64,000 nt of DNA. It comes from Thermodesulfobacteriota bacterium (GTDB lineage: Bacteria > Desulfobacterota_D > UBA1144 > Nemesobacterales > UBA2774). How positions within the stretch are numbered: position 1 is the first letter of the stretch; each line of letters starts with the position of its first letter. The position numbers were made by a program, and so were the translations under genes. The notes beneath the pieces are model-generated. The model was not told the origin of the DNA. It was given only the letters and a program-made list of their open reading frames with translations, and did no database searches. Of the stretch, positions 5,495 through 25,556 are shown piece after piece. The DNA lies in assembly GCA_965216785.1 (NCBI GenBank), contig OZ244197.1, positions 736,001-800,000 on the forward strand, read 5' to 3'.

Positions 5495-6037
5495 TTAAGC
5501 ACTTACTTGCCTGCGGCGTAGGATCACAAAACCCGCTATTCCTAAAACTGATACCATCGCAATGAGACCCCACTCTGAAAGCGTTGGAATTGCCTCGGTT
5601 CTGGAATTAATAAATGTGCAACCAAGAAAACTGGGCTCGTTACAAGTGAGAGTTACACCTGAATCGACAATTGAATAACTTACACCGTTTTCTATAAAAG
5701 GCGCCTCAGCCTCGTTCTCTGCCATACCATTAAGCCCGCCACCGCAGCTTATGTCTCTGAGCACCCATCCGTTTACATCTCCCTGCGTCACCGTTACTGT
5801 ATCACCGAACGGAATAAGGACCAATCCATCATACGGTAGAGCGAAGGGTGAAAGAGTGAACTCGCGTTCCTCAGCACCAGTAACGGTATACGGGAACTCC
5901 GTCGAGCTTTCGGGTATCGTTTCAACTCCTATCATGATGGTGCAGCCACGTTGTTGGGCGTTCACATCAGAGTTAAAAACGAGCGCGCCGGATGACGCAA
6001 TAATAGCTAGAAACAAGAGATTTATTATATACTTCAT
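5495..6037 (-). CDS. IPTL-CTERM sorting-domain surface protein (single beta-sandwich/prealbumin-like domain)
   Basis: Signal peptide; C-terminal AIPTLSEWG + TM helix + RRRQ; four Cys. Confidence 0.85.
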   Translation of the reverse strand: MKYIINLLFLAIIASSGALVFNSDVNAQQRGCTIMIGVETIPESSTEFPYTVTGAEEREFTLSPFALPYDGLVLIPFGDTVTVTQGDVNGWVLRDISCGGGLNGMAENEAEAPFIENGVSYSIVDSGVTLTCNEPSFLGCTFINSRTEAIPTLSEWGLIAMVSVLGIAGFVILRRRQVSA

Positions 6038-6127
6038 TGTATCCTCCTTTCCTTGTAGTGGGCTTTATTATAACACGACCTTGGATATATGAAATTTTTG
6101 TTATTTCGATTCTCAAGGCTATAAAAT

Positions 6128-6155
6128 AAAAAAGGGAGCCGAAGCTCCCTTTTTT
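6128..6155 (-). terminator. Intrinsic terminator of IPTL-CTERM gene 2
   Basis: Same GGGAGC-CGAA-GCTCCC hairpin with A/T runs. Confidence 0.85.
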
Positions 6156-6187
6156 AATCTTTTTAATTTTGTGAATTTAGATTCTGA

Positions 6188-6670
6188 TTAAGCACTTACT
6201 TGCCTGCGGCGTATTACGAAATATCCCACTGCGCCTAAGCCCAGAACTAGAGCTACCAATCCCCATTGGGAGATAGTCGGTATAGCCTCTGTTTGGGAAT
6301 TGATAAAAGTACATGATGCGAAACCGCCATTTTGAAGGCACTCAAAACTAATACCCGAGCCTACTTTGGTAATATTCATGTTGTTAATGTTTTCGCAGTC
6401 AATATCTCTGAGCACCCATCCTGCAACATCTCCCTGCGTTACCGTTGTTATATCGGAAGCCCCAATCTTCCTGGCTTGGACGGGATTGATAGTAAACTCC
6501 TCAGGGAATTCACCTGTAACCGTATACGGGAAATCTGTGTCGCTTCCGGGTATCGTATCTACGAATATAGTAGCACTACAAAAATTTTGGGCCTTTACAT
6601 CAGCACTGAATAAAAACGCGCCGGATGACGCAAGAACAGCTACAAATAAAAGATTTACTATGTATCTCAT
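6188..6670 (-). CDS. IPTL-CTERM sorting-domain surface protein, paralog 2
   Basis: Start revised to MRYIVNLL (ATG 6670, AGGAGG SD); C-terminal AIPTISQWG-TM-RRRQVSA. Confidence 0.85.
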   Translation of the reverse strand: MRYIVNLLFVAVLASSGAFLFSADVKAQNFCSATIFVDTIPGSDTDFPYTVTGEFPEEFTINPVQARKIGASDITTVTQGDVAGWVLRDIDCENINNMNITKVGSGISFECLQNGGFASCTFINSQTEAIPTISQWGLVALVLGLGAVGYFVIRRRQVSA

Positions 6671-6797
6671 AATTATATCCTCCTTAGGTTGATTGGGCTT
6701 AACTATATCACAATAAACCCATTCTGCATAGAAAAACTTAGTAATAATGAGCAATAAAGAGGTTTGTTATTAACAGTTCGGGTTAATTTAAATTTAT

Positions 6798-7298
6798 CTA
6801 AGCATTAATCAGCCTGCGGCGAAGAACCATAAACCCCGCTAAACCTAAAACGGCTACGAGTGCTATGACGCCCCACTGAGAAAATGTCGGAATGGCTTCT
6901 GCGGCAGTGTTCGAAAAGGTGCAAAAAGCCTGGCCACCACCCTCATCGCAAGTGATATCAGCATTCTTAGCCGCAGTAGATACTGTTGTGCCTCCATTAG
7001 TCCTGCAGTTTATGTTTCTGAGTACCCAACCCTCTGGTGTATCCTCAGCTACACTTACAAAATCACCAACCTGGATATCGAAAAACTCCGTATTTTCAGG
7101 CTGAACTAGTATTTCTCTGCTTAAATCGCCCGAAACCGTGAACCTGAACAATGTACCGTCATCCGGAAACGCCTCTTTTGTTATTCCTACTTCGCATACA
7201 GAGTCTTGTGCTCTTACATCAGCACTAAACACTAAAGAAACTGAAAAAATAGCGAGTGTTATGACAAACACACCTACGAATCTATTTACATATCTCAT
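6798..7298 (-). CDS. IPTL-CTERM sorting-domain surface protein, paralog 3
   Basis: Start revised to MRYVNRF (ATG 7298, GGAGG SD); GWVLRNINC, CTFSN, AIPTFSQWG-TM-RRR. Confidence 0.85.
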   Translation of the reverse strand: MRYVNRFVGVFVITLAIFSVSLVFSADVRAQDSVCEVGITKEAFPDDGTLFRFTVSGDLSREILVQPENTEFFDIQVGDFVSVAEDTPEGWVLRNINCRTNGGTTVSTAAKNADITCDEGGGQAFCTFSNTAAEAIPTFSQWGVIALVAVLGLAGFMVLRRRLINA

Positions 7299-7402
7299 TT
7301 TATCCTCCAATTGTTTTACTCGGTTAAATCTTTTTAGAAACTTAGGTATGATAATACCCGACCTGGATCTAAAATATATTTTTTTTAAGAGGACGATACT
7401 CC

Positions 7403-7768
7403 ATGCCGACATTGATCGAAAAACCTGCTGTTATCGAAGCTGCGGGCAACGTGCCAAAGAAAATAGAGGAATTCGCGGGCAGGGTGAATTCAGGACATAC
7501 CGAAGCGAGTATAGCGCGCATGACCTCTCCCGAAGGGTGGATTGAGCCCGGTCAACGTCCTGAATTTCAGGAAATTACGGTAGTTCTTGAGGGAACGCTT
7601 AATGTTGAGCATGAAAATGGAGAGTTGGAGGTAATCGCGGGGCAGGCCGTAGTAACAAACCCGGGAGAATGGGTTAGGTACAGCACACCTAAAGAAGGAG
7701 GGGCTAAATACATAGCCGTTTGTCTGCCCGCTTTTTCGCCCGATACGGTACATAGGGATTCTGAATAA
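7403..7768 (+). CDS. Cupin domain protein (EutQ-like)
   Basis: GWIEPGQRPEFQEITVVLEG, AGQAVV...GEWVRYSTP, AVCLPAFSPDTVHRD. Confidence 0.8.
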   Translation: MPTLIEKPAVIEAAGNVPKKIEEFAGRVNSGHTEASIARMTSPEGWIEPGQRPEFQEITVVLEGTLNVEHENGELEVIAGQAVVTNPGEWVRYSTPKEGGAKYIAVCLPAFSPDTVHRDSE

Positions 7769-9965: not shown

Positions 9966-10250
9966 TTATTATATTACTCCCTTCATACACCACCGTTTCA
10001 GTGTGTATGATTCAGTTATTGTTCTCAATTTACCGGAATTGTCATAAATTATAAGAATAGTTTTTCGGCAATGACAGTAAGTTGTTTAGTTCTGGAAACG
10101 CATCCCGCCTTAACGATCAATCTACAATAATTTACATCAATTATATTTACCACTCACTTTTTAACTTGCTACATTATACCCGATATAATATAAATATTTA
10201 GATATGACGGCTAAACCCGTTTTCGGTAATATATTGTTAGAGCGGATATC

Positions 10251-10841
10251 ATGAACCGAACCCAAACAGACCGAACAACATTTCGCCCGGCAAGGAAGGA
10301 CGAGGGCAGACTGATTGCAGAGCTTTTCAGCATAGCATCTGACGGAGTTGCCGAGTACATTTGGACCACGTACGCCGAGCCAGGTGAGGATATATTCGAA
10401 TTCGGCGCCGCGCGCTATGCTGAGGAAGATACGCCGTTTAGCTATAAAAACGCTGTATTTGCTGAGCTGAATGGTGAAGTCCTTGGGATGCTCCTTACTT
10501 TTCCGATGGAAGAGAGCGATGTGGAAGAGTCTGAAATTGACCCTGTTCTCCTCCCATACACAAAGCTTGAGCAGTACGGGAGCTTCTACATATGCGCTAT
10601 GGCGGTATTCGATGAGTACAGAGGAATGGGGATCGGCACGAAATTCCTTGAGATCGCTGAGCAGCAGGCGAAAGAAAGAGGGCTTGCGCAGCTGAGTTTA
10701 CTGGTGTTTGAGCAAAATGAAGGCGCGGTGAGGCTCTACAAACGAAACGATTTTTACGAGATCAAGCGTGAGCCGATGGTGCCGCACGAACTCATTCACT
10801 ACACGGGCGATGTGCTTCTTATGGTGAAGGACCTTAAGTAA
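10251..10841 (+). CDS. GNAT family N-acetyltransferase
   Basis: MAVFDEYRGMGIGTKFL acetyl-CoA motif A; NEGAVRLYKRNDF. Confidence 0.9.
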   Translation: MNRTQTDRTTFRPARKDEGRLIAELFSIASDGVAEYIWTTYAEPGEDIFEFGAARYAEEDTPFSYKNAVFAELNGEVLGMLLTFPMEESDVEESEIDPVLLPYTKLEQYGSFYICAMAVFDEYRGMGIGTKFLEIAEQQAKERGLAQLSLLVFEQNEGAVRLYKRNDFYEIKREPMVPHELIHYTGDVLLMVKDLK

Positions 10842-10916
10842 TTCCAGCTATTCATTTGAAAATCCAAATCCACAGTTATTTATCACAATAGATACCAGAA
10901 AAAATTAACGTTTGAT

Positions 10917-10964
10917 TTGACAGGTTTTAAATATACGCATATAATTGAGAAAGTTTCTCAATTA
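10917..10964 (+). promoter_or_regulatory. Sigma70 promoter overlapped by a Fur-family (Zur-type) box
   Basis: TTGACA (10917-10922)-17 bp-TATAAT (10940-10945); perfect 11-1-11 palindrome TAATTGAGAAA-G-TTTCTCAATTA at 10942-10964. Confidence 0.85.
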
Positions 10965-11063
10965 GGACCAATCACACAATCTATTGTAACTATTTATAGA
11001 GAACGGAGCGGTTAGCACGGTCGTGTATTATCTTTAAAAAATAGGGTTTTTAAGTTAATAATC

Positions 11064-11480
11064 GTGTCAAAAGATATAAAAAGCATATTCCACGAGCAGG
11101 GACTGAAGTTTACGCCGCAGAGAAAGGCTGTACTTAAAGTCCTTCAGGATACGCACGCATATCTGCCGATAAATAAAATTCATACAAACGTAAAGGAGAT
11201 ACTCCCCGGCACAGGCCTGGCTACTGTATACCGCTCGCTTGAAACATTGGTCGATCTCGAATTAGTCGTGAAAGTTCACCTCAAAGACGGCTGCCACAGC
11301 TACGCGCTAGCACCCGAAGGGCACCGTCACCCTATTGTCTGTACCGACTGCAGTAAGGTAATCGAATACACAGAGTGCCCTATTGAGGAATTATCGAAAA
11401 AGGTATCAAAAGACACCGGCATCCCTATTCAAAACCATTTCCTTCAGCTTTTCGGGAAATGTAAGGAATGTAGGGCGTAA
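11064..11480 (+). CDS. zur: Fur family transcriptional regulator, probably Zur
   Basis: TPQRKAVL, GLATVYRSL, HRHPIVCTDC, GKCKEC; heads an operon containing znuABC-like genes. Confidence 0.75.
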   Translation: MSKDIKSIFHEQGLKFTPQRKAVLKVLQDTHAYLPINKIHTNVKEILPGTGLATVYRSLETLVDLELVVKVHLKDGCHSYALAPEGHRHPIVCTDCSKVIEYTECPIEELSKKVSKDTGIPIQNHFLQLFGKCKECRA

Positions 11481-11495
11481 GGAAAATAAAAAGAT

Positions 11496-12167
11496 ATGTC
11501 ACATTTACACATACCCGACGGAGTGCTCCCCGGCTGGCTCGTATTAGCAGGCTGGTTATTCACAGCGGTATTACTCGCATTGTGTATATACAGAGTAAGG
11601 CGTGTAGAGCTGACCCGGAAGATCCCGCTCATCGGGATAATTTCAGCGCTCATGATCGTATGCATGACGCTGCCGGTGATTCCGTTTGCGTATCACGTGA
11701 ACCTGAGCGTAGTGGCCGGGATAATCCTTGGACCCGCGCTTGCGTTTATTTCAATATTCATCGTAGACCTGATAATAGCGATGTTCGGCCACGGGGGGAT
11801 AACCGTAGTCGGGCTTAATACTATTGTAGTCGGCGCCGAAGCAGTACTCGGTTATTACCTATTTCTAATGTTTAAAATGCTGATGGGTAACTATTCGGTC
11901 GGCTGGTCGTCGGGGATTGCAGCGGTGTTCAGCCTGATATTGAGCACAACATTACTAGTAGGTCTACTTTATGCAGCCCATGTGAACCCCGATCTAATGA
12001 TAGAGGCGGAATCACACGTAAAAAACGGGCTTAACATTGGCGTGTTCATAAAAACAGCCCTGACCATACTATTTTTCGGGTGGATGATCGAGGGAGTGAT
12101 TACAGGGCTCGTTATAAAGTACGTCTCGGGCATCCGGCCAGATTTGATACAGACGGACACAACATAG
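11496..12167 (+). CDS. cbiM: ECF transporter substrate-capture subunit, CbiM/NikM family
   Basis: N-terminal HIPDG motif, YHVNL, FGHGGITVVGLN, MIEGVITG. Confidence 0.8.
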   Translation: MSHLHIPDGVLPGWLVLAGWLFTAVLLALCIYRVRRVELTRKIPLIGIISALMIVCMTLPVIPFAYHVNLSVVAGIILGPALAFISIFIVDLIIAMFGHGGITVVGLNTIVVGAEAVLGYYLFLMFKMLMGNYSVGWSSGIAAVFSLILSTTLLVGLLYAAHVNPDLMIEAESHVKNGLNIGVFIKTALTILFFGWMIEGVITGLVIKYVSGIRPDLIQTDTT

Positions 12168-12177
12168 GAAACAGAGA

Positions 12178-12981
12178 ATGGACATTGCACTAATAGATTA
12201 TTACGCAAATCATGGAAAGAGCTTTCTCCACAGCGCAGCGGCACCGAGCAAGCTACTGTTTTCAGCCCTGGTCATAGCCTCTGTAGTGATTACAGAAGAG
12301 TTTTACCTTTTGCTCGCCATTTATCTGTTACTTGTAAGCATGGCCGTATGGACAAGGCTTTCAGTTACTAAAATAATAACTATTGCGGCTTATCCTGCTA
12401 TATTCGCAATTTTATTCGTCATAGCAACCTGGGACGGAAGTCTGTTGAGAGCGGGGGTGATAATGTTAAAGGCCCTAACCGCCGCCCTTACTATGGTGAT
12501 TCTCATAGTAACCACTCCTTACCCCGATGTTTTTAAAACCCTAAAACCTATATTGCCCGGGATAATTCACGACGGGCTGTATCTGACGTACCGCTCGCTC
12601 TTCGTTCTGCTTGAAATGACCGATGAACTGGTTAAAGGTCTTAAGGTAAGAGGCGGTCTGACAAAAAAGAAATATTTCACAAACATCGCCAATTTCTCGT
12701 CCGGCATTGGGCTCGTGCTGGTAAAGGGGTTCGACATAACGGAAAAGTATTACGGTGTGATGAAAGTAAGGGGGTATACAGGGAAAATTGCGGCGGATAA
12801 AAACAGCAGGAGATTTAGTACAGAGGACTTAAGGGCAGTAGGATTTGGTGTATTAATATTCTCCGTAGCGCTTGGAGTTAAGCTTTATGGAAGTATCTAC
12901 AAATCGGGCTTATATGCGCTTATTCTTGCGGCAATCATTCTAATAATATCAATAGGATACATAGCTAAAGAGAGAAAATAA
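12178..12981 (+). CDS. cbiQ: ECF transporter transmembrane subunit T (CbiQ family)
   Basis: Multi-TM; TTPY, LTYRSLFVL, two VRG coupling motifs. Confidence 0.8.
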   Translation: MDIALIDYYANHGKSFLHSAAAPSKLLFSALVIASVVITEEFYLLLAIYLLLVSMAVWTRLSVTKIITIAAYPAIFAILFVIATWDGSLLRAGVIMLKALTAALTMVILIVTTPYPDVFKTLKPILPGIIHDGLYLTYRSLFVLLEMTDELVKGLKVRGGLTKKKYFTNIANFSSGIGLVLVKGFDITEKYYGVMKVRGYTGKIAADKNSRRFSTEDLRAVGFGVLIFSVALGVKLYGSIYKSGLYALILAAIILIISIGYIAKERK

Positions 12982-12990
12982 GGAGAAACT

Positions 12991-13848
12991 TTGGAAGAGC
13001 TTGTAAAAGTAAGTAACCTGAAATTCAAATACCCCGACGGCACCTCGCTCTCATTTGACGGGCAGGAATTTACTGTGGGAAAAGGTGAGCGTGTAGCAAT
13101 ACTCGGACCCAACGGAAGCGGTAAATCTACACTTCTCTCGCTCCTTTTGGGACTATTAAAATCAACAGAGGGCGAGATCAATGTGCTCGGTGTAAACCCT
13201 GGAGCAGACTATGAGAAAGTACGCGAGCGAATAGGGGCGCTCCTTCAGAACGTGGAGCTTCAGATCATCGCCCCCCGCGTATGGGATGATATTTCATTTT
13301 CTCCACGGAACTACGGCTACGACAAGGAAGAGACAGATAAGCTTGTAGAGGAGCTTCTTGTTAAGCTCGATATTGACCACCTTAGAGATAAAGTGCCTCA
13401 TTACCTGAGCGGGGGGGAAAAAACCAAGGTTGCAATTGCGGGCGCTCTTGCCACTAGACCCGAGCTTTTAATCCTGGACGAGCCGTTCGAGCACATAGAC
13501 CCCACTTGCAGAAAAGAACAGATAAATCTGCTGAACAGCGTAAACCGCGAGCACGGAACAGCTATAGTATTATCAACACACAACATGAATACAGTGCCTC
13601 TTGTCGCAGATACGGTCTATTTGATCGGCGAGGGAGGACATATAGTTAAGAAAGGCACCCCGAAAGAGATTTTCTCTGATGTAGAGTCTCTTTCAAAATG
13701 CCATATTGAGCCTCCTATATTGGGAGAGCTCTTCTCGGAGCTTAAGAAAAGCGGCATAGATTTAGATGTATCTTTAACAGTAGAAGAGGCCGCTTGCACT
13801 TTAAGGGATATCTTGCTATCATCTAAAAACAGGTCGGACGTCGGATGA
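12991..13848 (+). CDS. cbiO: ECF transporter ATPase (CbiO family)
   Basis: GPNGSGKST, LSGGEK, LILDEP, STH. Confidence 0.85.
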   Translation: MEELVKVSNLKFKYPDGTSLSFDGQEFTVGKGERVAILGPNGSGKSTLLSLLLGLLKSTEGEINVLGVNPGADYEKVRERIGALLQNVELQIIAPRVWDDISFSPRNYGYDKEETDKLVEELLVKLDIDHLRDKVPHYLSGGEKTKVAIAGALATRPELLILDEPFEHIDPTCRKEQINLLNSVNREHGTAIVLSTHNMNTVPLVADTVYLIGEGGHIVKKGTPKEIFSDVESLSKCHIEPPILGELFSELKKSGIDLDVSLTVEEAACTLRDILLSSKNRSDVG

Positions 13849-14183
13849 ATACAGTTAGAGAAAATATAATGAAAGGACCCGCAAGATTGTTACTGCCGAT
13901 GTTGGCAGTCATCTTCGTTATATCTATCAGCTTACACAATCATGCTATAGGTATAGACTCCGGATCTGTAATTGAGCTCTCCGACGCGGCGCCCGACACG
14001 CACCATTCGGTCCAGGATTGCTCTGCCTGTTTACTGCAGGGAAACGTTAAGCTGCCGGATATGGGTGCCGTATTCATTGCACCTATCCCGCTGATTATCA
14101 CATCCTTAGAAGAAACCGAATTTCTAATACCATCTTCATTCTTACAACTTAATAAACCCTCACGCTCACCGCCGACCGTATAG
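13845..14183 (+). CDS. DUF2946/CruR-like metal-sensing upstream ORF (putative ribosome-arrest peptide)
   Basis: N-terminal hydrophobic segment, HNH, HH, CSAC, C-terminal RSPP; directly upstream of an outer-membrane metal-uptake gene; alternative start ATG 13869. Confidence 0.7.
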   Translation: MNTVRENIMKGPARLLLPMLAVIFVISISLHNHAIGIDSGSVIELSDAAPDTHHSVQDCSACLLQGNVKLPDMGAVFIAPIPLIITSLEETEFLIPSSFLQLNKPSRSPPTV

Positions 14184-14381
14184 CTTTCAGTTTGCCGTGT
14201 GAGCACAAGGGTGAAATGAACCGATAAATTCGCCCCAATTATACATATACATTCATATGTTCGGACTAAAGTGCGGAAGTTCCGTTTTTAGCGCCGAGGT
14301 TTTTTCTATTCAATAAGAAATAGCTCACACCGGCTGATTGGTTACCGGAATTCCATACTAATACACATTTGGAGGTGAGTT
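14184..14381 (+). promoter_or_regulatory. Structured intergenic leader (candidate translational switch/attenuator)
   Basis: Outer helix 14194-14204/14323-14334 encloses hairpins 14209-14235, 14243-14260 and 14261-14297 (the last followed by a T-run). Confidence 0.55.
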
Positions 14382-15767
14382 ATGCGTTTAAGAAGAATTA
14401 TCTTTACAGCAGTCCTAATTCTGTTTATATCTCCGGATTTTACACAGCAAGCATTTGGAGATGAGAAAAATGATGTAAAGCAGGAACTAAAAGAGCTCAG
14501 GAAAATGATGGAAACGATGCAGCAAAGAATTGATGAGCTTGAAGAGAAAAATGAAACATTGGAAAAACAAGCCAAAGAAAAAGACGAGACAATAGTAGTC
14601 GAAGAGGAAACGGATTTAACCGTGATTGAGCAGCCTGCCACTGAGCGGGAGGGATTTTTCCAGAGAGCCCTCAATACCTTTAACCCCGAGATAAGCGTAA
14701 TAGGTATATTCGCTGCCGCCTGGTATTCGCAGGACGACCCGATTGTATTCGCTGAGGCAGACCCTGAAAATACTGGCGTTAATCTACAGGAACTCGAGAT
14801 CGGATTTCAGGGCGTTATAGACTCCTACTTCAGGTTCGATGCTTTCCTCTCTTTCGGAATCGAAGGAGTGGAGCTTGAAGAAGCATACGGGACAACGCTT
14901 TTCAGCCTGCCGCTTAACTCTCAGATAAGAGCGGGAAGAATGAGGGCCAAGTTCGGCAGGATCAACCAAATCCACAGACACAACCAGAACTTCGTGACTC
15001 TGCCGCTACCCGCAGCTCAGTTCTTGGGCGAGCATCTAAACCCAACGAGCATAGAGGCTAATTTTCTTGTGCCCGTTCCTTGGTATATGGAGCTAAGCGC
15101 TCTGGGCGGAAGCCCTGACGTAGAGACACCGACCTTTGACAGGGACGAAAACGCAAACAACCTGGCAAGGCTCCTTTATATTTTCCATTTGGCAAACTTC
15201 GTTGAGGTCTCTGAGGCGCTTGGCGTAAGCTTGGGCGGCTCGTTCGCTACGGGCGCAAACAATACCGGGCGTGATGAGAGATCAAACCTATACGGTGTAG
15301 ACCTATTCGCCAAATACCGGCCGCTTAAAAATAACCCTTATCAGGAAGTGATGCTCCAGTCAGAGTTTATGTACCTAGACGCGGACACCCCTGAAGAGAA
15401 CCTCGAGAACTGGGGCTGGTACGCTCAGCTCGTTTACCGTTTCGCAAAGAGATGGAATACCGGATTTCGGTACGGGATAATCGACACGAATACACCTGTA
15501 CATGAAGAAGAGGAGCTAGAGGGTGATCCGGCCGGGCTGTTTAGTTTAATTAGGACAGGCGAGGAGGAAGAGGGACATGAAGAAGGGATGCTCGGTTTAG
15601 AAGGCAGAACGTACCGCCTATCGCCGATGCTGACTTTTAACCCGAGCGAATTCTCGCGCCTGAGAATACAGTACGACTACCTGAACCAGGACTTTGCCGA
15701 AAACCAGCACGCGATATTCCTTCAGTTCCAGTACTCGCTGGGAGCGCACGGGGCGCACCCGTTTTAA
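14382..15767 (+). CDS. Zinc-regulated outer-membrane beta-barrel/porin-like protein
   Basis: Signal peptide, coiled-coil N-terminus, NPEISVIG, LEEAY, FGRINQIHRH, PSEFSRLRIQY, C-terminal LGAHGAHPF; precedes znuA. Confidence 0.8.
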   Translation: MRLRRIIFTAVLILFISPDFTQQAFGDEKNDVKQELKELRKMMETMQQRIDELEEKNETLEKQAKEKDETIVVEEETDLTVIEQPATEREGFFQRALNTFNPEISVIGIFAAAWYSQDDPIVFAEADPENTGVNLQELEIGFQGVIDSYFRFDAFLSFGIEGVELEEAYGTTLFSLPLNSQIRAGRMRAKFGRINQIHRHNQNFVTLPLPAAQFLGEHLNPTSIEANFLVPVPWYMELSALGGSPDVETPTFDRDENANNLARLLYIFHLANFVEVSEALGVSLGGSFATGANNTGRDERSNLYGVDLFAKYRPLKNNPYQEVMLQSEFMYLDADTPEENLENWGWYAQLVYRFAKRWNTGFRYGIIDTNTPVHEEEELEGDPAGLFSLIRTGEEEEGHEEGMLGLEGRTYRLSPMLTFNPSEFSRLRIQYDYLNQDFAENQHAIFLQFQYSLGAHGAHPF

Positions 15768-15792
15768 GAAAACGTAATAGGAGAAAAGAGCT

Positions 15793-16776
15793 ATGAAAAA
15801 CAAAATTTCACTAAAACAATTTGCATTGAGTGTGTTATTTGCAGCGGCGGCGCTTGTTATGACCGATATACCCGCGCTTGCCCAGGTAAAGGTAGTGACT
15901 TCAGTACCGGACTTTGCCGCTATCGCAAAAGAGATCGGCGGAGACAGAGTAGAGGTAACGAGCCTCGCCAAGGGTTACCAAGACCCCCATTTCGTAGACG
16001 CAAAGCCGATTTTTATTACAAGGCTTAACCAGGCGGATATGCTTATCTATAACGGTCTTGACCTAGAAGTTGGGTGGCTGCCGATTCTCATTACTGGGGC
16101 AAGGAACTCAAATATCTCCTCTCCCCACGAAATCGGCCACTATAACGCCTCTGTATCAATTAAGGAATTTCTGGAAGTGCCCACTATACCAGTCGACAGG
16201 TCGATGGGGGACGTACACCCGGGGGGCAACCCTCACTATATGCTTGACCCCAGAAGCGGTATACCCGTCGCCAGAAGCATCGCTGCAAGACTCATACAAA
16301 TAGACACTGAGAACGCTTCATATTACGAGGAGAATTTCAACAACTTCGTCAGCACACTCAGGCTTAAGATAAGCGAATGGGAAGATGAGCTTGAGCCCTT
16401 TAAAGGCACTCAGGTCGTAACATACCATAAGCTCTGGAGCTACTTCTTGAATTGGGCGGGTTTTAAGAACGCGGGAACGATAGAACCTAAACCGGGAATA
16501 CCGCCTTCGCCTTCACACACTGCCGAGATTATAAACACGATGGAGCGTAAGAATGTCGGACTTATTATAGCGGCTAACTATTACCCGGAAAAAACGGCTT
16601 CGATTATCGCCCAGAAAACAGGCGTCATTTTCCTTTCTTTGCCTGCGATGGTTGAGGGGAGAGACGGTATAGAGAGCTATATTGAGCTATTCGACGCGCT
16701 CGTGGGCGAGATTACGTCTGCGCTTCAGAATAGGACAGGCTCGACTGAAATCAGGGCAGGATTTAATGACGGATAA
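15793..16776 (+). CDS. znuA: Metal (Zn/Mn) ABC transporter substrate-binding protein
   Basis: QDPHFV, GDVHPGGNPHY, YHKLWSY; cluster A-I solute-binding protein. Confidence 0.85.
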   Translation: MKNKISLKQFALSVLFAAAALVMTDIPALAQVKVVTSVPDFAAIAKEIGGDRVEVTSLAKGYQDPHFVDAKPIFITRLNQADMLIYNGLDLEVGWLPILITGARNSNISSPHEIGHYNASVSIKEFLEVPTIPVDRSMGDVHPGGNPHYMLDPRSGIPVARSIAARLIQIDTENASYYEENFNNFVSTLRLKISEWEDELEPFKGTQVVTYHKLWSYFLNWAGFKNAGTIEPKPGIPPSPSHTAEIINTMERKNVGLIIAANYYPEKTASIIAQKTGVIFLSLPAMVEGRDGIESYIELFDALVGEITSALQNRTGSTEIRAGFNDG

Positions 16777-16801
16777 ATAAGTTTACATATCTCCAAAGGT
16801 G

Positions 16802-16842
16802 CCCCCGGGCTGCCCTTGAGAAGGGGACTCAGTCCGGGGGGG
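16802..16842 (+). other. GC-rich intercistronic hairpin between znuA and znuC
   Basis: CCCCCGGGCTG (16802-16812) pairs with CAGTCCGGGGG (16830-16840); inner CCCTT/AAGGG. Confidence 0.6.
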
Positions 16843-16872
16843 TTCTCACTTTCTAAGTCTGGGATAAAAACG

Positions 16873-17622
16873 ATGGCGAATCTCATAAAGCTTGAAAATC
16901 TAACAATAGGGTATGAAAAAAAAGCGCTCATTAAAACTTCTGATATATCCATAGACAGTGGACAATTTTGGGGAGTATTAGGGCCTAACGGGAGTGGGAA
17001 GAGCACTCTCCTTAAAACTATACTGGGATTAATACACCCTCTAGCGGGACAAGTTAATTCTAAAAAAGGTATAGTGCTGGGCTACGTTCCGCAGAGTGAA
17101 AAGTTTGACCCCATCTTTCCGGTTTCAGTGTATGAGCTCGTATCTATGGGACGATACAGCAGGGTCTCCCCCGGAAAGAGGCTCGGGATGAGGGATAGAG
17201 AAGCAATAGAGAGATCGATTGAAAAAGCGGGGATATCACACTTATCTAACCGCAAATTCCGCTCGCTTTCGGGAGGAGAGAAGCAGCGCTCGCTCCTCGC
17301 AAGGGCGATTGCTGGGGAGCCCGATATATTAGTACTAGATGAGCCAACGGCGGCGGTAGATATTAAGGGAGAGGCGCAAATAATGAGCCTTGTAAAAGAT
17401 ATAAAAAAGGAGAGCGGGCTTGCGGTTTTAATGGTCAGCCACTTTCTAAACACTATATCCGCATTTTCAGACTATATTATATTGATCGACAAGGACAAGG
17501 AGCTATTTCAGGCAGGCGAGAAGTCCGAAATTCTAAACAGCGAGAACCTGAGCGCGTTCTTCGGGCTGAACCTTGATATGGAGAGAATAAAGGAGATGCA
17601 GGCGATCGACCGCCTGACATAA
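16873..17622 (+). CDS. znuC: Metal ABC transporter ATP-binding protein
   Basis: GPNGSGKSTL, GYVPQ, LSGGEKQR, LVLDEPT; start revised to ATG 16873. Confidence 0.85.
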   Translation: MANLIKLENLTIGYEKKALIKTSDISIDSGQFWGVLGPNGSGKSTLLKTILGLIHPLAGQVNSKKGIVLGYVPQSEKFDPIFPVSVYELVSMGRYSRVSPGKRLGMRDREAIERSIEKAGISHLSNRKFRSLSGGEKQRSLLARAIAGEPDILVLDEPTAAVDIKGEAQIMSLVKDIKKESGLAVLMVSHFLNTISAFSDYIILIDKDKELFQAGEKSEILNSENLSAFFGLNLDMERIKEMQAIDRLT

Positions 17623-17634
17623 TGCTGGACTAAT

Positions 17635-18483
17635 ATGGCAACATTTGCTGAATTTATAAACAGCTACTTTCTATGGAGAGACCCTATGATAGTCGGGGCC
17701 GCCGCGGGTGCTGTGTGCGGTTTTCTCGGAGTATATGTGGTGCTGAGGCGCATAGTGTTCGTAAGCGCGGCGCTTACTCAAATATCGAGCTTCGGCGTTG
17801 GGTTAGCTTTTTATCTTGAAGCATACAGCATAGGGGTTTTCGCCTCATTATTCGATCCCTTTATACTGTCCTTGCTATTGACATGCCTGGCAGCCGTTTT
17901 CTTTTCATCAAAAAGGGATTTCTCACGGATAAGCACGGAAGGCGTTATTGCGTTTGGATTTTTACTGGCCTCGGGAGCAGTAGTTATAATAGGCGACAGG
18001 ATAACAAAAGGGGCGCATGATATAGCAAATATACTTTTCGGAAGCGCCGTTGTAGTTGACCCTTCAGACGTTTTGATAATACCCTCTGTTGCGCTTGCAG
18101 TATTTATAATTCACCTGATCTACTATAAAGATTTTGTATTCGTATCCTTTGACACCGAGACCGCGAAACTGTTTAAATATCCTGTAAGGCTGCTGAACAC
18201 CGGCCTCCTTATTACCATTGCAGTAGTAGTGGCTGTATCAACCAGAGCTCTCGGCGCGCTTCCCGTGTTTGCGTTATTAGCACTGCCGGCGCTTTCGTCG
18301 CTGCTCATAACGGAAAATCTGAAACTCGTTTTTATACTCTCCATAGTTATAGGAATCTTATCAGCAACTTTAGGCTACTTTTTCTCGTTTATTTTTTCAC
18401 TCCCGACAGGAGCGTCGATGACTGTTTGTGCGGCAATCTTTTTTCTTGTAGCGCTTGGGTTAAGGGAGTTAAGAGCAAGGTAA
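17635..18483 (+). CDS. znuB: Metal ABC transporter permease
   Basis: GFLGVYVVLRR, ILFGS, SFDTETA; ABC-3 family. Confidence 0.85.
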   Translation: MATFAEFINSYFLWRDPMIVGAAAGAVCGFLGVYVVLRRIVFVSAALTQISSFGVGLAFYLEAYSIGVFASLFDPFILSLLLTCLAAVFFSSKRDFSRISTEGVIAFGFLLASGAVVIIGDRITKGAHDIANILFGSAVVVDPSDVLIIPSVALAVFIIHLIYYKDFVFVSFDTETAKLFKYPVRLLNTGLLITIAVVVAVSTRALGALPVFALLALPALSSLLITENLKLVFILSIVIGILSATLGYFFSFIFSLPTGASMTVCAAIFFLVALGLRELRAR

Positions 18484-19023
18484 ATGAATATGCAAAGGGA
18501 ATACTTCATGGTCATGAGAATAGTACACGTACAGATAATTTTGATAATAACAGTATTATTTATAGGCTGTGCTCAATATGAAACCGCCATAGAGAAGCTG
18601 GAATGGTTAGAGCCCGACACATTTACATGCGACGTAGTGCAGGTCAGTAGCGGAGACACCTTCCTCTGCAGATTTCCAGACCTTGAAATCGATACAATCA
18701 GACTCGCCGGGATAAAAATTCCGGATAACAAAAAAAAGGAAGCTGAAATATTCACAAAGTCGGTACTAAAAAGAGGAACACTCGTAAATATAGAGCCTCA
18801 CAGGCAACAAAGAGCCGGATACGGCGGTATTTCAGCCTATGTATATGTACCGGGAGGAAAGATACTGAATATGCTTCTGTTAGAGAAAGGATACGCAGGA
18901 GTCGCCCGGGACGAGGTAAACGAAAAATACAAAGCGGAATTCATTAAAATAGAGGATAATAGGAGCGAGGAGACAGGGCTTATAGAAGAAGTAGAAACTG
19001 AAAAGAAACCCTGGGTTAAGTAA
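18484..19023 (+). CDS. Thermonuclease (SNase)-fold lipoprotein with degenerate active site
   Basis: Lipobox FIGC; GDT, IRLAGI, AYVY, LNMLLLEKGYA; true start probably 18508 or 18514. Confidence 0.75.
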   Translation: MNMQREYFMVMRIVHVQIILIITVLFIGCAQYETAIEKLEWLEPDTFTCDVVQVSSGDTFLCRFPDLEIDTIRLAGIKIPDNKKKEAEIFTKSVLKRGTLVNIEPHRQQRAGYGGISAYVYVPGGKILNMLLLEKGYAGVARDEVNEKYKAEFIKIEDNRSEETGLIEEVETEKKPWVK

Positions 19024-19052
19024 TATGCAATTAATACGTAAACACTTCTTAA

Positions 19053-19313
19053 TCAGGAAAGTGATTCCAGTGATATTGACTCATCAATCAGTAAAATCGG
19101 TATTCCGTCCCTTATTGGATAGAGGTATTTACGGTCGTCCTTTTGTATGAGCCCGCCGTTTATTTTCTCTCCGACATTTTGCCCGGAGCGGTTTTTTAGC
19201 TCCCCTTCTTCTATAAGAAGATTAATCTTATCAATAAGATCAGGCTCCGCAATCACCAAATCCTGCTTGGTCTCGGGGCAGGCAACTATTTTTAACAAAT
19301 CCTCGCTTATCAT
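19053..19313 (-). CDS. Trm112/YcaR family protein
   Basis: LLKIVACPETKQDL...YPIRDGIPILL. Confidence 0.9.
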   Translation of the reverse strand: MISEDLLKIVACPETKQDLVIAEPDLIDKINLLIEEGELKNRSGQNVGEKINGGLIQKDDRKYLYPIRDGIPILLIDESISLESLS

Positions 19314-19421
19314 ACTTAAATCCGTGGCCGCAAATTGAGTTTGTAAGAAAATATAATTGGATTACAGTACATGGTAATTTAGAATACATTACATATATCA
19401 AACTCAAAGGGAGCTAAGAAA

Positions 19422-20297
19422 ATGAGAAGAACAATATTGCTGTCATTATTAAGTATTTTCACTCTTGTAGCCGTAGGAATTACGGGATGCAAACAAGAAA
19501 CAGGCGACGCAAGCAAAGAGGCTGTTGAGGATACAGCCGCAGTACAGCAAAACAACCCTGCACCTGAAACCCAAGTTGAAGAGCCTAAGGTAATAATTGA
19601 AGCAGGGGAAAGATCCCCCGCTTTCCCGGGTGCAAAAGCACTATTTGCAAATATAAAAGACGGAGATGTCCTGGAAGACAATAACGTCTCTGTAGTAGTG
19701 GACGTACAGAACTATGAGCTTGGCATACAAACAGATACCGAAAGGGCCTCTGAAATCGCAAACTCCGCAAAAGGGCAGCACGCTCATATAATTCTAGATA
19801 ACGATCCCTACTTTGCCGATTATGAAGCCGGAGTGCCCTTTGATATAGGTACGCTTGATGAAGGCGCTCATACGATCCTGGTGTTTCCGAGCCGCTCCTA
19901 TCATGAGAGCGTAAAATCAGAAGGATCTGTGGATATAGTAAATTTTTACATCGGCAAGGAAGACGGGGAGTTTATGCTCGACAAATCAAAACCTACTATC
20001 ATTTACAGCAGGCCGAAAGGCAAATATGAGGGTAAGGACGCAGAAAAGATTATGCTCGATTTTTACCTTATTAATGCTGAGCTTGGCGATGATTACAATG
20101 CTAAATACACAATCCGTAAAAATGTAGCGGACGCTGTGGAGCATTCAATCACTATGACGGAATGGACCCCCGCGTTTGTAAGTGGTCTAAGTAGCGGAGA
20201 GTATGTTATTACTCTTCAGCTTTTAGATAAAGACGGGAACCTGGTTGATGGACCTTTTAACAATACCCAAAGAACAATTTCCGTTGTTACTGAATAG
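19422..20297 (+). CDS. Uncharacterised lipoprotein with His-containing putative metal site
   Basis: Lipobox ITGC; GQHAHIILDN, GAHT, SRSYHESVK; two related beta-rich domains. Confidence 0.7.
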   Translation: MRRTILLSLLSIFTLVAVGITGCKQETGDASKEAVEDTAAVQQNNPAPETQVEEPKVIIEAGERSPAFPGAKALFANIKDGDVLEDNNVSVVVDVQNYELGIQTDTERASEIANSAKGQHAHIILDNDPYFADYEAGVPFDIGTLDEGAHTILVFPSRSYHESVKSEGSVDIVNFYIGKEDGEFMLDKSKPTIIYSRPKGKYEGKDAEKIMLDFYLINAELGDDYNAKYTIRKNVADAVEHSITMTEWTPAFVSGLSSGEYVITLQLLDKDGNLVDGPFNNTQRTISVVTE

Positions 20298-20322
20298 TGT
20301 GGAAGGATTAAGACTGGCGTAG

Positions 20323-20370
20323 AAAAAAAATGAAGGGGAGATCCTGCTTAGAATCTCCCCATAACTTTTC
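20323..20370. terminator. Bidirectional terminator between convergent genes
   Basis: GGGGAGAT/ATCTCCCC stem with flanking A and T runs. Confidence 0.65.
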
Positions 20371-20386
20371 TAATTATCAGACCGAA

Positions 20387-21019
20387 CTAGTTAACATAAA
20401 GAACCCAGGCGCCCTGATCGCCCTGGATCTTACCCTGGAGCTCTACACTATTCCTGTCTGAAGTAGCTTCTAATTTACTTATTGCCTCTTCTGACCCATG
20501 TAAAGCATAAACCTGACCGCCGCTTGTGGTAACAACGTGAAGGTGCTGATCCTTCTCACCACAAGGCGATGTTGCTACAACAGGCTGTACGCTTCCGTCC
20601 TCATAATTCGGTAGCAAGCATACTAATGTGCCAGATACAGAAGCTTCCTTTGCGCCCGATTCGTCAAGCGCTGAAGCCGTTCCGAGAATCCAACCCCTGG
20701 TATGTCCGGCGATTTCACCGCTTACAGTCTGCTTTCCGCCTTTCATACCCTTCATATCGTCCTTCTTAGCAGCAACCGCCGCCGCTTTGTCGGACCCGAC
20801 CATGACTACTGTGCCTGTACACTCGGTAAACTCGGCCATTGTCTGAACATTGCCTTCCTCGTCTACCTGTACACAGATTAACGTACCTTCCATAGCCGCC
20901 ATCTTATCACCGTCTTTCATACTATCATCGGCTTTTCCCTCGTGCTGGGCAGCAAAAACCGGAAGTGCTAATGTAAGAGCTAATACTAACATTGATAATG
21001 TTAAAGCTCCTCTCAACAT
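20387..21019 (-). CDS. Exported hypothetical protein with two internally repeated domains
   Basis: Signal peptide; repeats GTLIC...GEIAGHTRGWIL and GTLVC...GKIQGDQGAWVL; AGGAGG SD. Confidence 0.7.
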   Translation of the reverse strand: MLRGALTLSMLVLALTLALPVFAAQHEGKADDSMKDGDKMAAMEGTLICVQVDEEGNVQTMAEFTECTGTVVMVGSDKAAAVAAKKDDMKGMKGGKQTVSGEIAGHTRGWILGTASALDESGAKEASVSGTLVCLLPNYEDGSVQPVVATSPCGEKDQHLHVVTTSGGQVYALHGSEEAISKLEATSDRNSVELQGKIQGDQGAWVLYVN

Positions 21020-21268
21020 ATTTACGTACCTCCTAAGGTTTTTTGTTCCACATAATATCTAAACACATGATATTATCCATTACAAGCAGAATTATTCCCC
21101 CCTCTAATTCAGAATATTTTATAATAAAAACGGGGAAGAAATCCTAATTATAGGAACATACTGTAATTAGATTATAAAATCTTAGATTTGGATGCGTAAT
21201 ATTTTTTATTTACAAACAGGAAGTTTATGGGATAATATTAGGGAAATTGGGAATTTAGGGAGATTAGT

Positions 21269-21508
21269 ATGTCACAGAAATGTATGATCACAGGTAAAGC
21301 ACCGCTAACAGGCAACCATGTGTCTCACGCGAATAATAAGGTTAAGCGCCGTCAAAACCCTAACCTTCATTGGAAGCACATCTTTGTCCCTGAACTTAAC
21401 CGTACGGTCAGAATCAGGATTTCCACCCGTGCACTCAGAACTATAAATAAAAAGGGTCTCCTGCCTTTTCTCAAAGATAACGGCCTTAAGCTTAAGGACC
21501 TTACTTAG
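21269..21508 (+). CDS. rpmB: 50S ribosomal protein L28
   Basis: MSQKCMITGK...GNHVSHANNKVKRRQNPNLH. Confidence 0.96.
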   Translation: MSQKCMITGKAPLTGNHVSHANNKVKRRQNPNLHWKHIFVPELNRTVRIRISTRALRTINKKGLLPFLKDNGLKLKDLT

Positions 21509-21546
21509 CTTTTATACTAACAATACACCATCCTTTAGGGCAAATT

Positions 21547-21984
21547 ATGAAATCTGGAAAGACAGATTACGCCTATTTGCTTACGCGCGCAACAAAAAGT
21601 GCGGGCTCAATTCTTAAAGATACCAACAAATTGAACCGCCTTGTCGATAGTGCTACGCTCAGCATAGACTCAGGCGTAAGCCGTATGAACGGCGTAAAGA
21701 GCGATCTCAGCACGCTTCTGAGCTTGATAAAAGCATGGGCGAGAGGTGATTACACAGGGGTATCAAAAACTACTCTGCTTCTGAGCGCGGGAGCAGTCGT
21801 ATATTTCGTGAACCCCATGGACGCAATACCCGACATTCTGCCTGCTACAGGCCTGTTGGACGACGCCACTGTAATAGGGATAGTTATTACTTCTATAAAG
21901 AAAGATATCGAAAGCTTCAAGCTCTGGGAATCAGCCCGGACTGATATTGCAACGTCTAAACAACCTGAATCCGTACCCACTTAA
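21547..21984 (+). CDS. YkvA/DUF1232 family protein
   Basis: YFVNPMDAIPDILPATGLLDD motif. Confidence 0.88.
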   Translation: MKSGKTDYAYLLTRATKSAGSILKDTNKLNRLVDSATLSIDSGVSRMNGVKSDLSTLLSLIKAWARGDYTGVSKTTLLLSAGAVVYFVNPMDAIPDILPATGLLDDATVIGIVITSIKKDIESFKLWESARTDIATSKQPESVPT

Positions 21985-21992
21985 CCACTCAG

Positions 21993-23945
21993 CTATTCAT
22001 TATCTTCATACTTCTCTTTGAGTTCCTTTACGACACTCGGGTCGGCAAGTGTTGTCGTATCACCCAGAACCGAGCCTTCGGCTATATTTCTTAGGAGCCT
22101 TCTCATTATCTTACCGCTACGTGTTTTGGGCAGCTCAGCTGTGAATATAATTTCATCTGGCCTTGCAATGGCCCCGATCTTCTTGGCCACGTGCTGCCTT
22201 AATTCTGCTACCAGCCGGGAGCTTGTCTCTATCCCTTTCTTGAGGGTTGTAAATGCTACAACGGCCTGGCCCTTAATTGGGTCCGCCCTTCCCACAACTG
22301 CTGCTTCTACTACTGATGGATGATCCACGAGAGCGCTTTCCACTTCCATGGTACTTAAGCGATGGCCGGCCACGTTCATGACGTCGTCCACTCTGCCAAG
22401 TACCCATATACAACCGTCTTTGTCACGCTTTGCGCCGTCTCCCGTAAAATAAATATCCGGGTATTTGCTCCAATACTGTTCTTTATAGCGTCCGTGGTCG
22501 CCGTAGATAGTCCTCAGCATAGAAGGCCAGGGACTCTTAATGACGAGATATCCCGCCCCCTCCTTAACGGTTTTACCTTCTTCGTCAACAACATCGGCAT
22601 CAATTGTAGGGAACGGGACTGTAGCTGAGCCTGGCTTCGTCTTGGTTACTCCGGGCAGAGGAGTAATCAGTATAGAACCCGTTTCTGTCTGCCACCATGT
22701 GTCAACGATCGGACATTTTTTATCGCCTATATGCGTATGGTACCAAACCCAGGCTTCGGGGTTGATCGGCTCTCCGACCGAGCCCAGAAGACGAAGCGAG
22801 CTGAGGTCGTACTTCTTGGGGTGCTCCTCTCCCCACCTCATAAACGCTCTTATCGCAGTGGGTGCAGTATATAGAATATTAACAGCGTATTTTTCCACTA
22901 TAGCCCAGAACCTGCCTATATCCGGGTAATCGGGTGCTCCCTCGTACATTAAAGACGTTGCCCCATTGGCAAGCGGGCCGTAAATAATATAGCTGTGCCC
23001 GGTTACCCAGCCTATGTCTGCAGTGCACCAATACGTGTCCTCGTCTTTCATATCAAAGACCCATTTTGTCGTGGCGTATGCCCCCACCAGGTAGCCCCCT
23101 GTGGTGTGGACAATACCCTTGGGCTTACCCGTAGTTCCGCTCGTATAGAGTACGAAAAGCATGTCTTCGCTGTCCATTCTCTCGGGGACGCAGTAAGCCG
23201 CCGCCTCATCCATGAGCTCATGCCACCAGTAGTCTCTTCCCCTTTTCATTTTTATTCTGGCTCTGCTTCCGACTCTGTCAACCACGACAACTTTTTTGAT
23301 GCTTTTAGCTTTCTTTAGCGCCTCGTCAGCGTTCTTCTTAAGAGGTACTATTTTCCCCCTTCTGTAGCCGCCGTCCGAGGTAATAAGTACTTTAGATTTG
23401 GAATCTTTTATCCTGTCGCTCAGGCTCTCGGGGCTGAATCCGCCGAACACTATGCTGTGCGGGGCACCTATCCTTGCACAGGCTAGCATCGCAATCGCAA
23501 GCTCGGGAACCATGGGCAGATATATCGTCACGACGTCGCCCTTTTTTACTCCAAGCCCTTTTAAGACATTGGCAAATTTATTTACCTCCCTGTAGAGCTC
23601 CCAATATGTAAGTGTGACAGTCTTTCCGAATTCCCCCTCCCAGATGATCGCTGCTTTATTCTTTCTGTGTGTAGTTATATGGCGGTCAAGACAGTTATAA
23701 GAAACATTAATCTTCCCTCCGAGGAACCACTTGGCATGAGGAGGCTTCCAGCTTAGCACCTTCCTCCATTTCTTAAACCAATCGAGCTCTTTCGCAAAGT
23801 CCTCCCAGAATTTCTCAGGGTTGCGCTTTGCCTTCCTATATACAGCATCTGAGCTGACATGCGCTTTCTCTTTGAATTTCTTACTCGGAGAAAATGTGCG
23901 TTTCTCTTTAAGCAGTGACTCGATAGTTTTTTCTTTTTTAGCCAT
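21993..23945 (-). CDS. acs: Acetyl-CoA synthetase (AMP-forming)
   Basis: [42 protein letters not shown]. Confidence 0.97.
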
Positions 23946-25371: not shown

Positions 25372-25556
25372 GTTTCCTCCTTTAAGACACACCTCTAGAT
25401 TCTAGTGATTTAATAAAACTCATTATATCACAGATATAAATGCATTCAATAGCTAATTTAGGGGCACAAAAACCCTTTCTTTCTAGTGAGTTAAGAGCTT
25501 TTGTTATGATTCCTCTACTGTTTATTTCAAACATAAGCCACTGTAACAGCAAATAA

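Follow-up and report, generated by a model that had tools for sequence, protein, structure and literature searches.

Between the last gene of a cbiMQO-like transporter and the gene of an outer-membrane porin, the window analyzed here (a stretch of 64,000 nucleotides) contains a small reading frame. Does this frame regulate the genes that follow it, by which mechanism, and in response to what? A sequence-only reading had taken it for a zinc-sensing ribosome-arrest leader that gates metal uptake genes. We regard it as a conserved CruR/CutF-like leader that is likely to act as a metal-gated switch, in which its RSPP codons are set against the porin gene's Shine-Dalgarno (SD) sequence and zinc is the most likely metal. 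This reading rests on observed motifs, spacing, synteny, codon constraint and complementarity, and on a helix and opening energies that were computed.

Table 1. Features of the operon in the window and the evidence on which each is based.
Feature	Position	Strand	Basis
Sigma-70-type promoter, 12/12 consensus, likely operon promoter	10917..10945	+	only 12/12 site in 10800-19500
21-bp palindrome overlapping -10; likely Fur-family repressor operator	10943..10963	.	unique; conserved
Fur-family repressor	11064..11480	+	PF01475; Zur by exclusion only
cbiM-cbiQ-cbiO-like ECF transporter	11496..13848	+	PF01891, PF02361, PF00005
CruR/CutF-like leader (uORF): TM/signal, HxH, H, CxxC, RSPP; 112 aa	13845..14183	+	ORF and alignment
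Leader export/anchor helix, hydrophobic (residues 13-31), and HxH (H31, H33)	13881..13943	+	helix model; hydropathy; HxH in 45/45 close orthologues
Leader H54 and C59-x-x-C62, predicted metal ligands	14004..14030	+	Cys invariant, n=54; His before CxxC in 42/45
RSPP codons: predicted arrest site and anti-SD strand (partner 14369-14380)	14163..14175	+	folding, codon use
Leader-porin spacer, 198 nt; predicted fold-back joins the two helix strands	14184..14381	+	folding; sequence non-conserved; 50-215 nt in relatives
Porin SD region, 3' strand of predicted helix	14370..14379	+	codon, folding and alignment analyses
Uncharacterized outer-membrane porin, N-terminal coiled coil; predicted OprP/ChiP-like barrel	14382..15767	+	model, fold search
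ZnuA-family substrate-binding protein (SBP), His triad	15793..16776	+	PF01297
ABC ATPase and ABC-3 permease (ZnuC/ZnuB-like)	16816..18483	+	PF00005, PF00950; AztA/AztB-type NCBIfam models best, below cut-off

Translation of the frame gives H31-x-H33, H53-H54, C59-x-x-C62 and R107-S-P-P, followed by two codons and a TAG stop, just as the sequence-only reading had described it. The spacer length that it gave, from the leader stop to the porin ATG, was also borne out, and its estimate of about 45 residues between CxxC and RSPP agrees with the 44 residues that separate CxxC from R107. The N-terminal transmembrane segment that it assumed coincides with the most hydrophobic part of the leader (mean Kyte-Doolittle 2.0 over residues 13-31), which is modeled as a confident helix. 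The leader ATG overlaps the stop codon of cbiO (ATGA), and the leader is the fifth gene of an operon with the order fur, cbiM, cbiQ, cbiO, uORF, porin, SBP, ATPase, permease. Its combination of motifs is not a product of chance: among 14,918 stop-to-stop frames of at least 60 aa in the whole genome, four have R[AGS]PP at their end, no more than six residues from the stop, and in two of those four a CxxC motif also lies 42-46 residues upstream. The leader matches no Pfam or NCBIfam family. An Rfam scan of positions 10000-22000 yielded no riboswitch or other family (one chance match, E 0.99), and neither a consensus promoter nor an intrinsic terminator was found in the leader-porin spacer. The AlphaFold model of the leader (pLDDT 59) is without a stable folded domain and too poor for a fold search. 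Elsewhere in the window (5495-7412 and 24175-25392), several secreted proteins have an IPT(L/I/F)S(E/Q)WG tail that resembles a sorting signal, three of them in tandem.

A porin match is present in 86 of 120 genomes of the Dadabacteria class, and 80 of these 86 have a convincing match to the leader profile, a count that is partly circular because 54 of these same loci went into the profile. The 34 genomes without a porin match gave no convincing match to the profile, save for one hit with internal stops (E 0.0099). The six porin-bearing genomes without a leader match comprise one in which the region lies at a contig edge (G100), four of a distant lineage, and G020, whose porin module is truly leaderless, with a ZIP gene directly adjoining the porin. 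No such leader lies ahead of three distant porins from other phyla. Of the 54 aligned leaders, 45 precede close porins and nine precede porins of about 27% identity. H31, C59, C62, R107, P109 and P110 are invariant in all of them at a mean column identity of 32%, and CxxC-to-R spacing ranges from 42 to 45 residues (44 in 40/54). The 45 close orthologues all keep HxH, a histidine is found 4-8 residues ahead of the first cysteine in 42 of them, and the second residue of the arrest motif is Ser in 34 and Ala in 11. An alignment of orthologues had been suggested as a check of the earlier reading; it shows R-[AS]-P-P and the CxxC spacing to be conserved upstream of this porin family. Of the H53-H54 pair, which is present here, only one histidine is conserved (HH in 2/45 close orthologues). 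Locus L058, whose porin start was not found, and duplicate loci were left out of every 54-locus count. The leaderless loci L008-L010, L028, L048, L070 and L072 are absent from the codon counts given below, and the porin gene of L032 is interrupted by stops, so that its background codon count is short.

Placement of the leader in a known family is less straightforward than had been proposed. The DUF2946 model (PF11162) found no match at its gathering cut-off (23.7 bits) in the leader protein or the genome, and among the 54 leader relatives it gave two weak matches (best E 0.0044). The leader profile reaches 117 cluster representatives; among lower-ranked matches that were scanned, 18 of 91 match PF11162, two of them above its cut-off, and in distant matches the spacing between CxxC and RxPP clusters at 42-46. 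Since the profile reaches PF11162 members though below the cut-off, we assign the leader to a divergent CruR/CutF-like branch and not to the Pfam family itself. Its length (below 150 aa) with an N-terminal helix, the invariant CxxC and C-terminal RxPP at a spacing near 45, and a metal-homeostasis module (porin and ZnuA-type ABC) next on the same strand behind a long spacer are all characteristic of CruR/CutF-like leaders. Unlike CruR, the leader does not head its operon here and has no strong internal promoter, while in some relatives it stands first behind a palindrome. Copper-linked downstream genes, which CruR and CutF have, were not seen among the neighbors, which are ZnuA/C/B-like, CbiMQO, ZIP and MerC. 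What had been claimed of a CruR/CutF-type metal-binding arrest uORF in front of a porin-ABC module is backed by the invariant motifs, the conserved spacing and the strict linkage to the porin.

If ribosomes arrest at RSPP, the P-site would be 47 residues away from C62 and 76-78 residues away from HxH. The lengths of the exit tunnel and the translocon would put HxH outside and CxxC at the threshold during such a stall, a geometry that would suit a pull upon metal binding. For CruR, it is reported that CxxC and RAPP are 45 residues apart and both required, and that five additional residues between them broke regulation (PMC9426467). CruR brings ribosomes to a halt at its PP codons, and an RSPP motif permits arrest in part (PMC12992588). 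CruR was found to work without its signal, whereas CutF needs it.

The genes behind the leader point to uptake. The porin met no Pfam cut-off, and its model (pLDDT 79) has ChiP, OprP and OprB as best folds, on which ground the Atlas label "TonB-dependent receptor" was rejected. The best PDB match of the SBP is Synechocystis ZnuA. Its third ligand aligns with the histidine of ZnuA, against a glutamate in the manganese binders MntA and PsaA, and 70 of the 71 loci aligned, counting duplicates, have this histidine. With histidine at the third ligand position the SBP is, judged by its sequence, of the ZnuA type (zinc).

Control of the operon at its head is less easily assigned to zinc. The -35 and -10 elements are retained ahead of the operator box in relatives. 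The palindrome is unique in the genome at up to three mismatches, and of 22 distinct loci inspected, 20 have a corresponding box ahead of the fur orthologue; one of the other two is gapped, and the other concerns a different paralogue. No wider operator regulon was found in the genome (the next site has 12.9 bits vs 24.6-36.1 for true boxes), and the regulon of the repressor appears to consist of one operon. In relatives the box heads cbiMQO, ZIP, znuABC, merC or the leader. The "Zur-type box" of the sequence-only reading is real and conserved as a palindrome, single in this genome, and a candidate Zur box. Three Fur-family paralogues are encoded in the genome, of which the other two score best as Fur and PerR. 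The repressor of this operon gives 41 bits with the NCBIfam model of Zur, 101 with that of Fur and 96 with that of PerR, all below cut-off. In the PDB it is matched best by Fur proteins and by entry 3eyy, which we take to be Nur, ahead of Zur entries. At positions filled by His and an acidic residue in the aligned Fur proteins it carries Tyr and Ala, and its His71, Cys77 and Cys105 are largely conserved.

CbiM has no PDB sequence match. Its N-terminus reads MSHxH[I/V]PDG, an extension of the canonical CbiM start MHI. The slot between fur and the leader is occupied by ZIP in three loci and by a second znuABC in two, and it is empty in one. This exchangeable slot behind the repressor (cbiMQO, ZIP, znuABC or empty) is seen in L048, L052, L053, L059, L054, L055 and L044, and the ZnuA that replaces cbiMQO in L054 and L055 starts with an HI motif resembling that of CbiM. 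The ECF transporter of the present operon may carry zinc. A second operator-like palindrome lies directly before the leader in L054, L055, L056, L061-L066 and L069; the leader's own transcript may be subject to the repressor there.

Which metal would the leader read? We consider zinc the probable answer. The SBP has the His triad, ZIP or znuABC replaces cbiMQO upstream in other lineages, a distant porin is flanked by genes that best match ZnuA and Zur, and manganese has a separate ABC locus headed by MntR. The same leader and anti-SD switch might instead respond to nickel or cobalt (or to copper or several soft metals) under a Nur-like repressor, which we hold to be unlikely although several observations favor it: cbiMQO lies on the same transcript and is the constant partner of the repressor in all five split operons described below, and the repressor matches Fur proteins and 3eyy better than Zur entries. 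Moreover, both characterized family members sense copper through Cys motifs, and non-copper CutF-like proteins have been predicted, His-rich clusters of which are linked to Ni/Co transporters (PMC9973294). On the other hand, the leader stays with the porin and the His-triad SBP and not with cbiMQO, the latter is exchanged for ZIP or znuABC in other lineages, and a search of this genome (92% complete) turned up no NiFe hydrogenase, urease, NikR or CbiC. It did turn up B12-dependent mutases. With respect to copper, the annotated genes of the porin module include no copper gene, and methionines are scarce near the leader ligands (6 in 45 sequences). A separate CxxC leader, located ahead of a different barrel, could be devoted to another metal. 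The ligands alone do not decide the matter, as His plus Cys does not separate Zn from Cu, Ni or Co; HxH with CxxC is widespread in distant leaders of uncharacterized context and therefore is not a zinc signature. The zinc-responsive reading put forward earlier thus draws its strength from the neighbors, which lean toward zinc, and not from the repressor, which scores best with Fur and PerR models below their cut-offs and follows cbiMQO when the operon is split. Ribosomal protein L28, encoded at 21269-21508, has a single cysteine, no zinc-ribbon pattern and no operator box nearby.

Control of the porin by the leader, for which the sequence-only reading had named no output mechanism, is likely to operate through the arrest codons themselves. 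When reverse-complemented, the R[S/A]PP codons spell the porin SD. In the present genome the helix contains one G-A mismatch (first Pro codon CCG), yet it is kept in the predicted structure. CCT serves as the first Pro codon in 48 of 54 loci (39/45 close, 9/9 distant), where 13.8 are expected from the same porin genes, in which CCT accounts for 26% of the Pro codons, and this preference persists across GC3 values from 0.28 to 0.81. An unrelated RSPP leader family before trkH, a small control (n=7), uses CCT in only two of seven cases. In folding calculations, the SD and the arrest window pair with P>0.5 in 46/54 native loci vs 9/54 after synonymous recoding, and native pairing exceeds that of the recoded sequence in 50/54. 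The footprint of a stalled ribosome reduces the predicted cost of opening the porin ribosome-binding site (RBS) by a median of 5.4 kcal/mol (>2 in 44/54 loci; 8.1 here), and a control mask of equal size in the middle of the spacer changes it by 0.0. Across the 45-locus alignment, 88.9% of the cells of the 10-pair helix are paired vs 39-51% when the strands are slid, and the covariation score was reached by none of 500 shuffles. In a second CxxC-RSPP family A follows GGAG(G) in 17/20 cases and T is found at the facing codon position in 9/20; in the present family T follows GGAGG in 45/45 and T faces it in 0/45.

Some results temper this picture. Two-sided compensatory changes amount to two pairs and are not above shuffles, and a tree test with independent pairs shows helix changes only in the expected direction, in 5-6 pairs that are too few for significance. 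With the footprint masked, the SD is still mostly paired elsewhere (mean 0.80 vs 0.97), its pairing dropping by >0.2 in 19/54 loci. Furthermore, any GGAGG complements Pro-Pro codons by default, and the porin SD is a strong consensus. SD masking of the SecM/CutF type, that is, a helix over the downstream SD which a stalled ribosome disrupts, is thus found here at the level of computation and comparison. In Bacillus, anti-SD-like sequences are able to repress an RBS that lies hundreds of nucleotides distant (PMC12697547), so pairing over about 200 nt is plausible. L047 and L050 carry a self-complementary, repeat-like insert in the spacer, with the predicted helix undisturbed.

Two other leaders of this genome may be mentioned at this point. 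The second CxxC-RSPP leader (L081:5243-6914; G000:C1:572243-573914) precedes a 367-aa secreted protein without Pfam match. Of 30 related loci, 20 have an RxPP leader, with a first Pro codon CCT, complementary to its own SD, in 13/20; this leader is possibly a sensor for another metal. An RSPP-ending leader without CxxC (L082:4625-6877; G000:C1:1480624-1482876) precedes trkH or a small Cys-rich, lipoprotein-like ORF. It is conserved in seven genomes without CCT bias and is a possible non-metal arrest leader.

The SD complementarity might also be a by-product of pyrimidine-rich Pro and Ser codons that form a rut site, the leader acting by Rho-dependent termination as in CruR. Rho is encoded in the genome, a C>G-rich window spans the arrest site in 42/45 close loci (skew 0.17 vs -0.03), and the long spacer recalls cruR-bfrG (PMC9426467). 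However, the skew upstream of RSPP is 0.141 vs 0.125 after recoding and higher than recoded in 28/45 loci; it follows from amino-acid content and lends no support to a selected rut site. Nor would a rut site account for the choice of CCT over CCC, for the lack of A-C mismatches where the helix ends, or for purine-ending Ser codons here vs T-ending ones in the second family. We thus judge this explanation to be quite improbable, while Rho could still act once translation is off.

Relatives provide natural experiments on the contribution of the leader and the repressor. In a distant lineage, 17 of 32 matching genomes have two leader copies about 2 kb apart, and one second copy contains stops. 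In the two cases that were read (L064:5189-7700 in G060; L069 in G038), the whole unit of leader, spacer, SD and signal peptide is repeated before the SBP gene, which argues that this unit moves as a cassette. The ZnuA-type gene in L064 and L069 now bears the signal peptide of the porin, and codons of the tail after RGPP supply a second SD-complementary tract. Eight genomes of another family have the leader-porin module without a nearby fur gene or box. In five of these, repressor and box are located elsewhere together with cbiMQO (5/5 split operons), and in the other three (93-96% complete) no repressor orthologue was found with the query used. Retention of the leader where the repressor is split off or lost marks it as the more constant partner of the porin module. 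Its earlier description as a second sensor within a Fur/Zur operon fits this genome, but across the relatives it is more constant than the repressor.

These genomes also bear on the view that the leader serves as a constitutive pause site or a monitor of secretion of the SecM/ApdA kind, or encodes a small secreted metal-binding protein, and sets basal porin output without sensing a metal. RAPP-type leaders do monitor secretion too (PMC10987492), the export segment is conserved, and in the present genome a Fur-family repressor already covers the transcript. Yet the His/Cys ligands and the interval between them and RSPP stay constant in an otherwise divergent leader, its model lacks a stable fold (pLDDT 59), the downstream genes encode metal transporters and not Sec components, and eight genomes keep the leader with neither repressor gene nor box nearby. 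A leader without metal sensing therefore seems very unlikely to us. The opposite polarity, in which metal induces the stall and turns on genes for export or sequestration, is known from CutF, which acts via an SD-masking stem-loop (PMC9973294; bioRxiv 10.1101/2025.02.05.636593), and one locus adjoins a CusA/CzcA-type efflux pair on the opposite strand. It is hardly credible here, as the gated genes encode an ABC system of the importer type, periplasmic binding protein included, that stands behind a Fur-family operator, and RAPP-like motifs arrest by default, as in CruR.

Returning to the metal-gated switch at the porin SD, we infer the following course of events. At low metal the repressor would lift and ribosomes would run from cbiO into the leader, where a ribosome stalled on RSPP would cover the anti-SD and free the porin start, so that the porin and the ABC genes are translated. 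When metal, most likely zinc, is sufficient, the HxH/H/CxxC site of the nascent chain would fold and the resulting pull would release the stall. The helix would then close over the SD and porin translation would stop, and the ZnuA/C/B-like genes behind the porin would probably be shut off by polarity. Because the leader is coupled to cbiO (ATGA) inside a Fur-family-repressed transcript, it would split the operon into a half controlled by the repressor only and a doubly controlled half. In its most specific form, namely a portable zinc-sensing cassette whose His/Cys site would fold around Zn at the membrane and tug the ribosome away from the RSPP anti-SD codons, the model is offered tentatively.

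The general kind of regulation is already known from CruR, CutF and SD unmasking of the SecM type. Literature searches, in which subscription papers were thinly covered, yielded neither a zinc-responsive arrest uORF nor a description of RxPP arrest codons acting as an anti-SD. ZnuA-linked CutF-like proteins may already be contained in the neighbor table (File S1) of PMC9973294, and the CruR paper states that no riboswitch has been described for Cu or Zn (PMC9426467). The characterized metal-sensing arrest leaders respond to copper; a zinc member, if true, would extend nascent-chain sensing to zinc homeostasis and be the first post-transcriptional zinc sensor of this type. In some Dadabacteria the leader would then be the only visible control of the porin-ZnuABC module. 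The use of arrest codons as anti-SD is a compact mechanism, in which silent mutations can separate effects of the peptide from those of the RNA, and cassette duplication before ZnuA, repressor loss and leader loss should reveal which control layer suffices.

Among known systems, CruR (Bp2923, DUF2946) upstream of bfrG/crtA in Bordetella pertussis is similar in having an export signal, a CxxC motif about 45 residues before a C-terminal RxPP, a tail of two to three residues, a long spacer and an outer-membrane uptake gene next in line (PMC9426467). It also shares the predicted polarity, with the stalled state ON and the metal-bound state OFF. By contrast, the present leader mostly has RSPP, conserves HxH and a further His, and remains below the Pfam cut-off. 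It is located in mid-operon, behind a Fur-family operator and coupled to cbiO; cruR, for its part, is the first gene of its operon and has no Fur box (PMC12914433). Its target is a porin with a ZnuA-type ABC system instead of a TonB receptor, its output is predicted to depend on SD masking, where that of CruR depends on Rho, and its metal is probably not copper. CutF of Rhodobacter capsulatus resembles it as an exported nascent chain with a Cys motif and a proline-rich end that unmasks the next SD, that of cutO (PMC9973294). In that system, which has CxxxC, PPP, an intergenic stem-loop and a detoxifier as target, a Cu-induced stall turns on cutO (PMC9973294; bioRxiv 10.1101/2025.02.05.636593), whereas here the 5' strand consists of the arrest codons themselves, the predicted pairing bridges about 200 nt and importers are the targets. 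SecM, MifM, VemP and ApdA/ApdP likewise combine a RAPP-like motif with a downstream-SD helix that the stalled ribosome disrupts; according to PMC10987492 and PMC12992588, they monitor protein export or insertion and are without the fixed set of metal ligands that distinguishes the leader described here.
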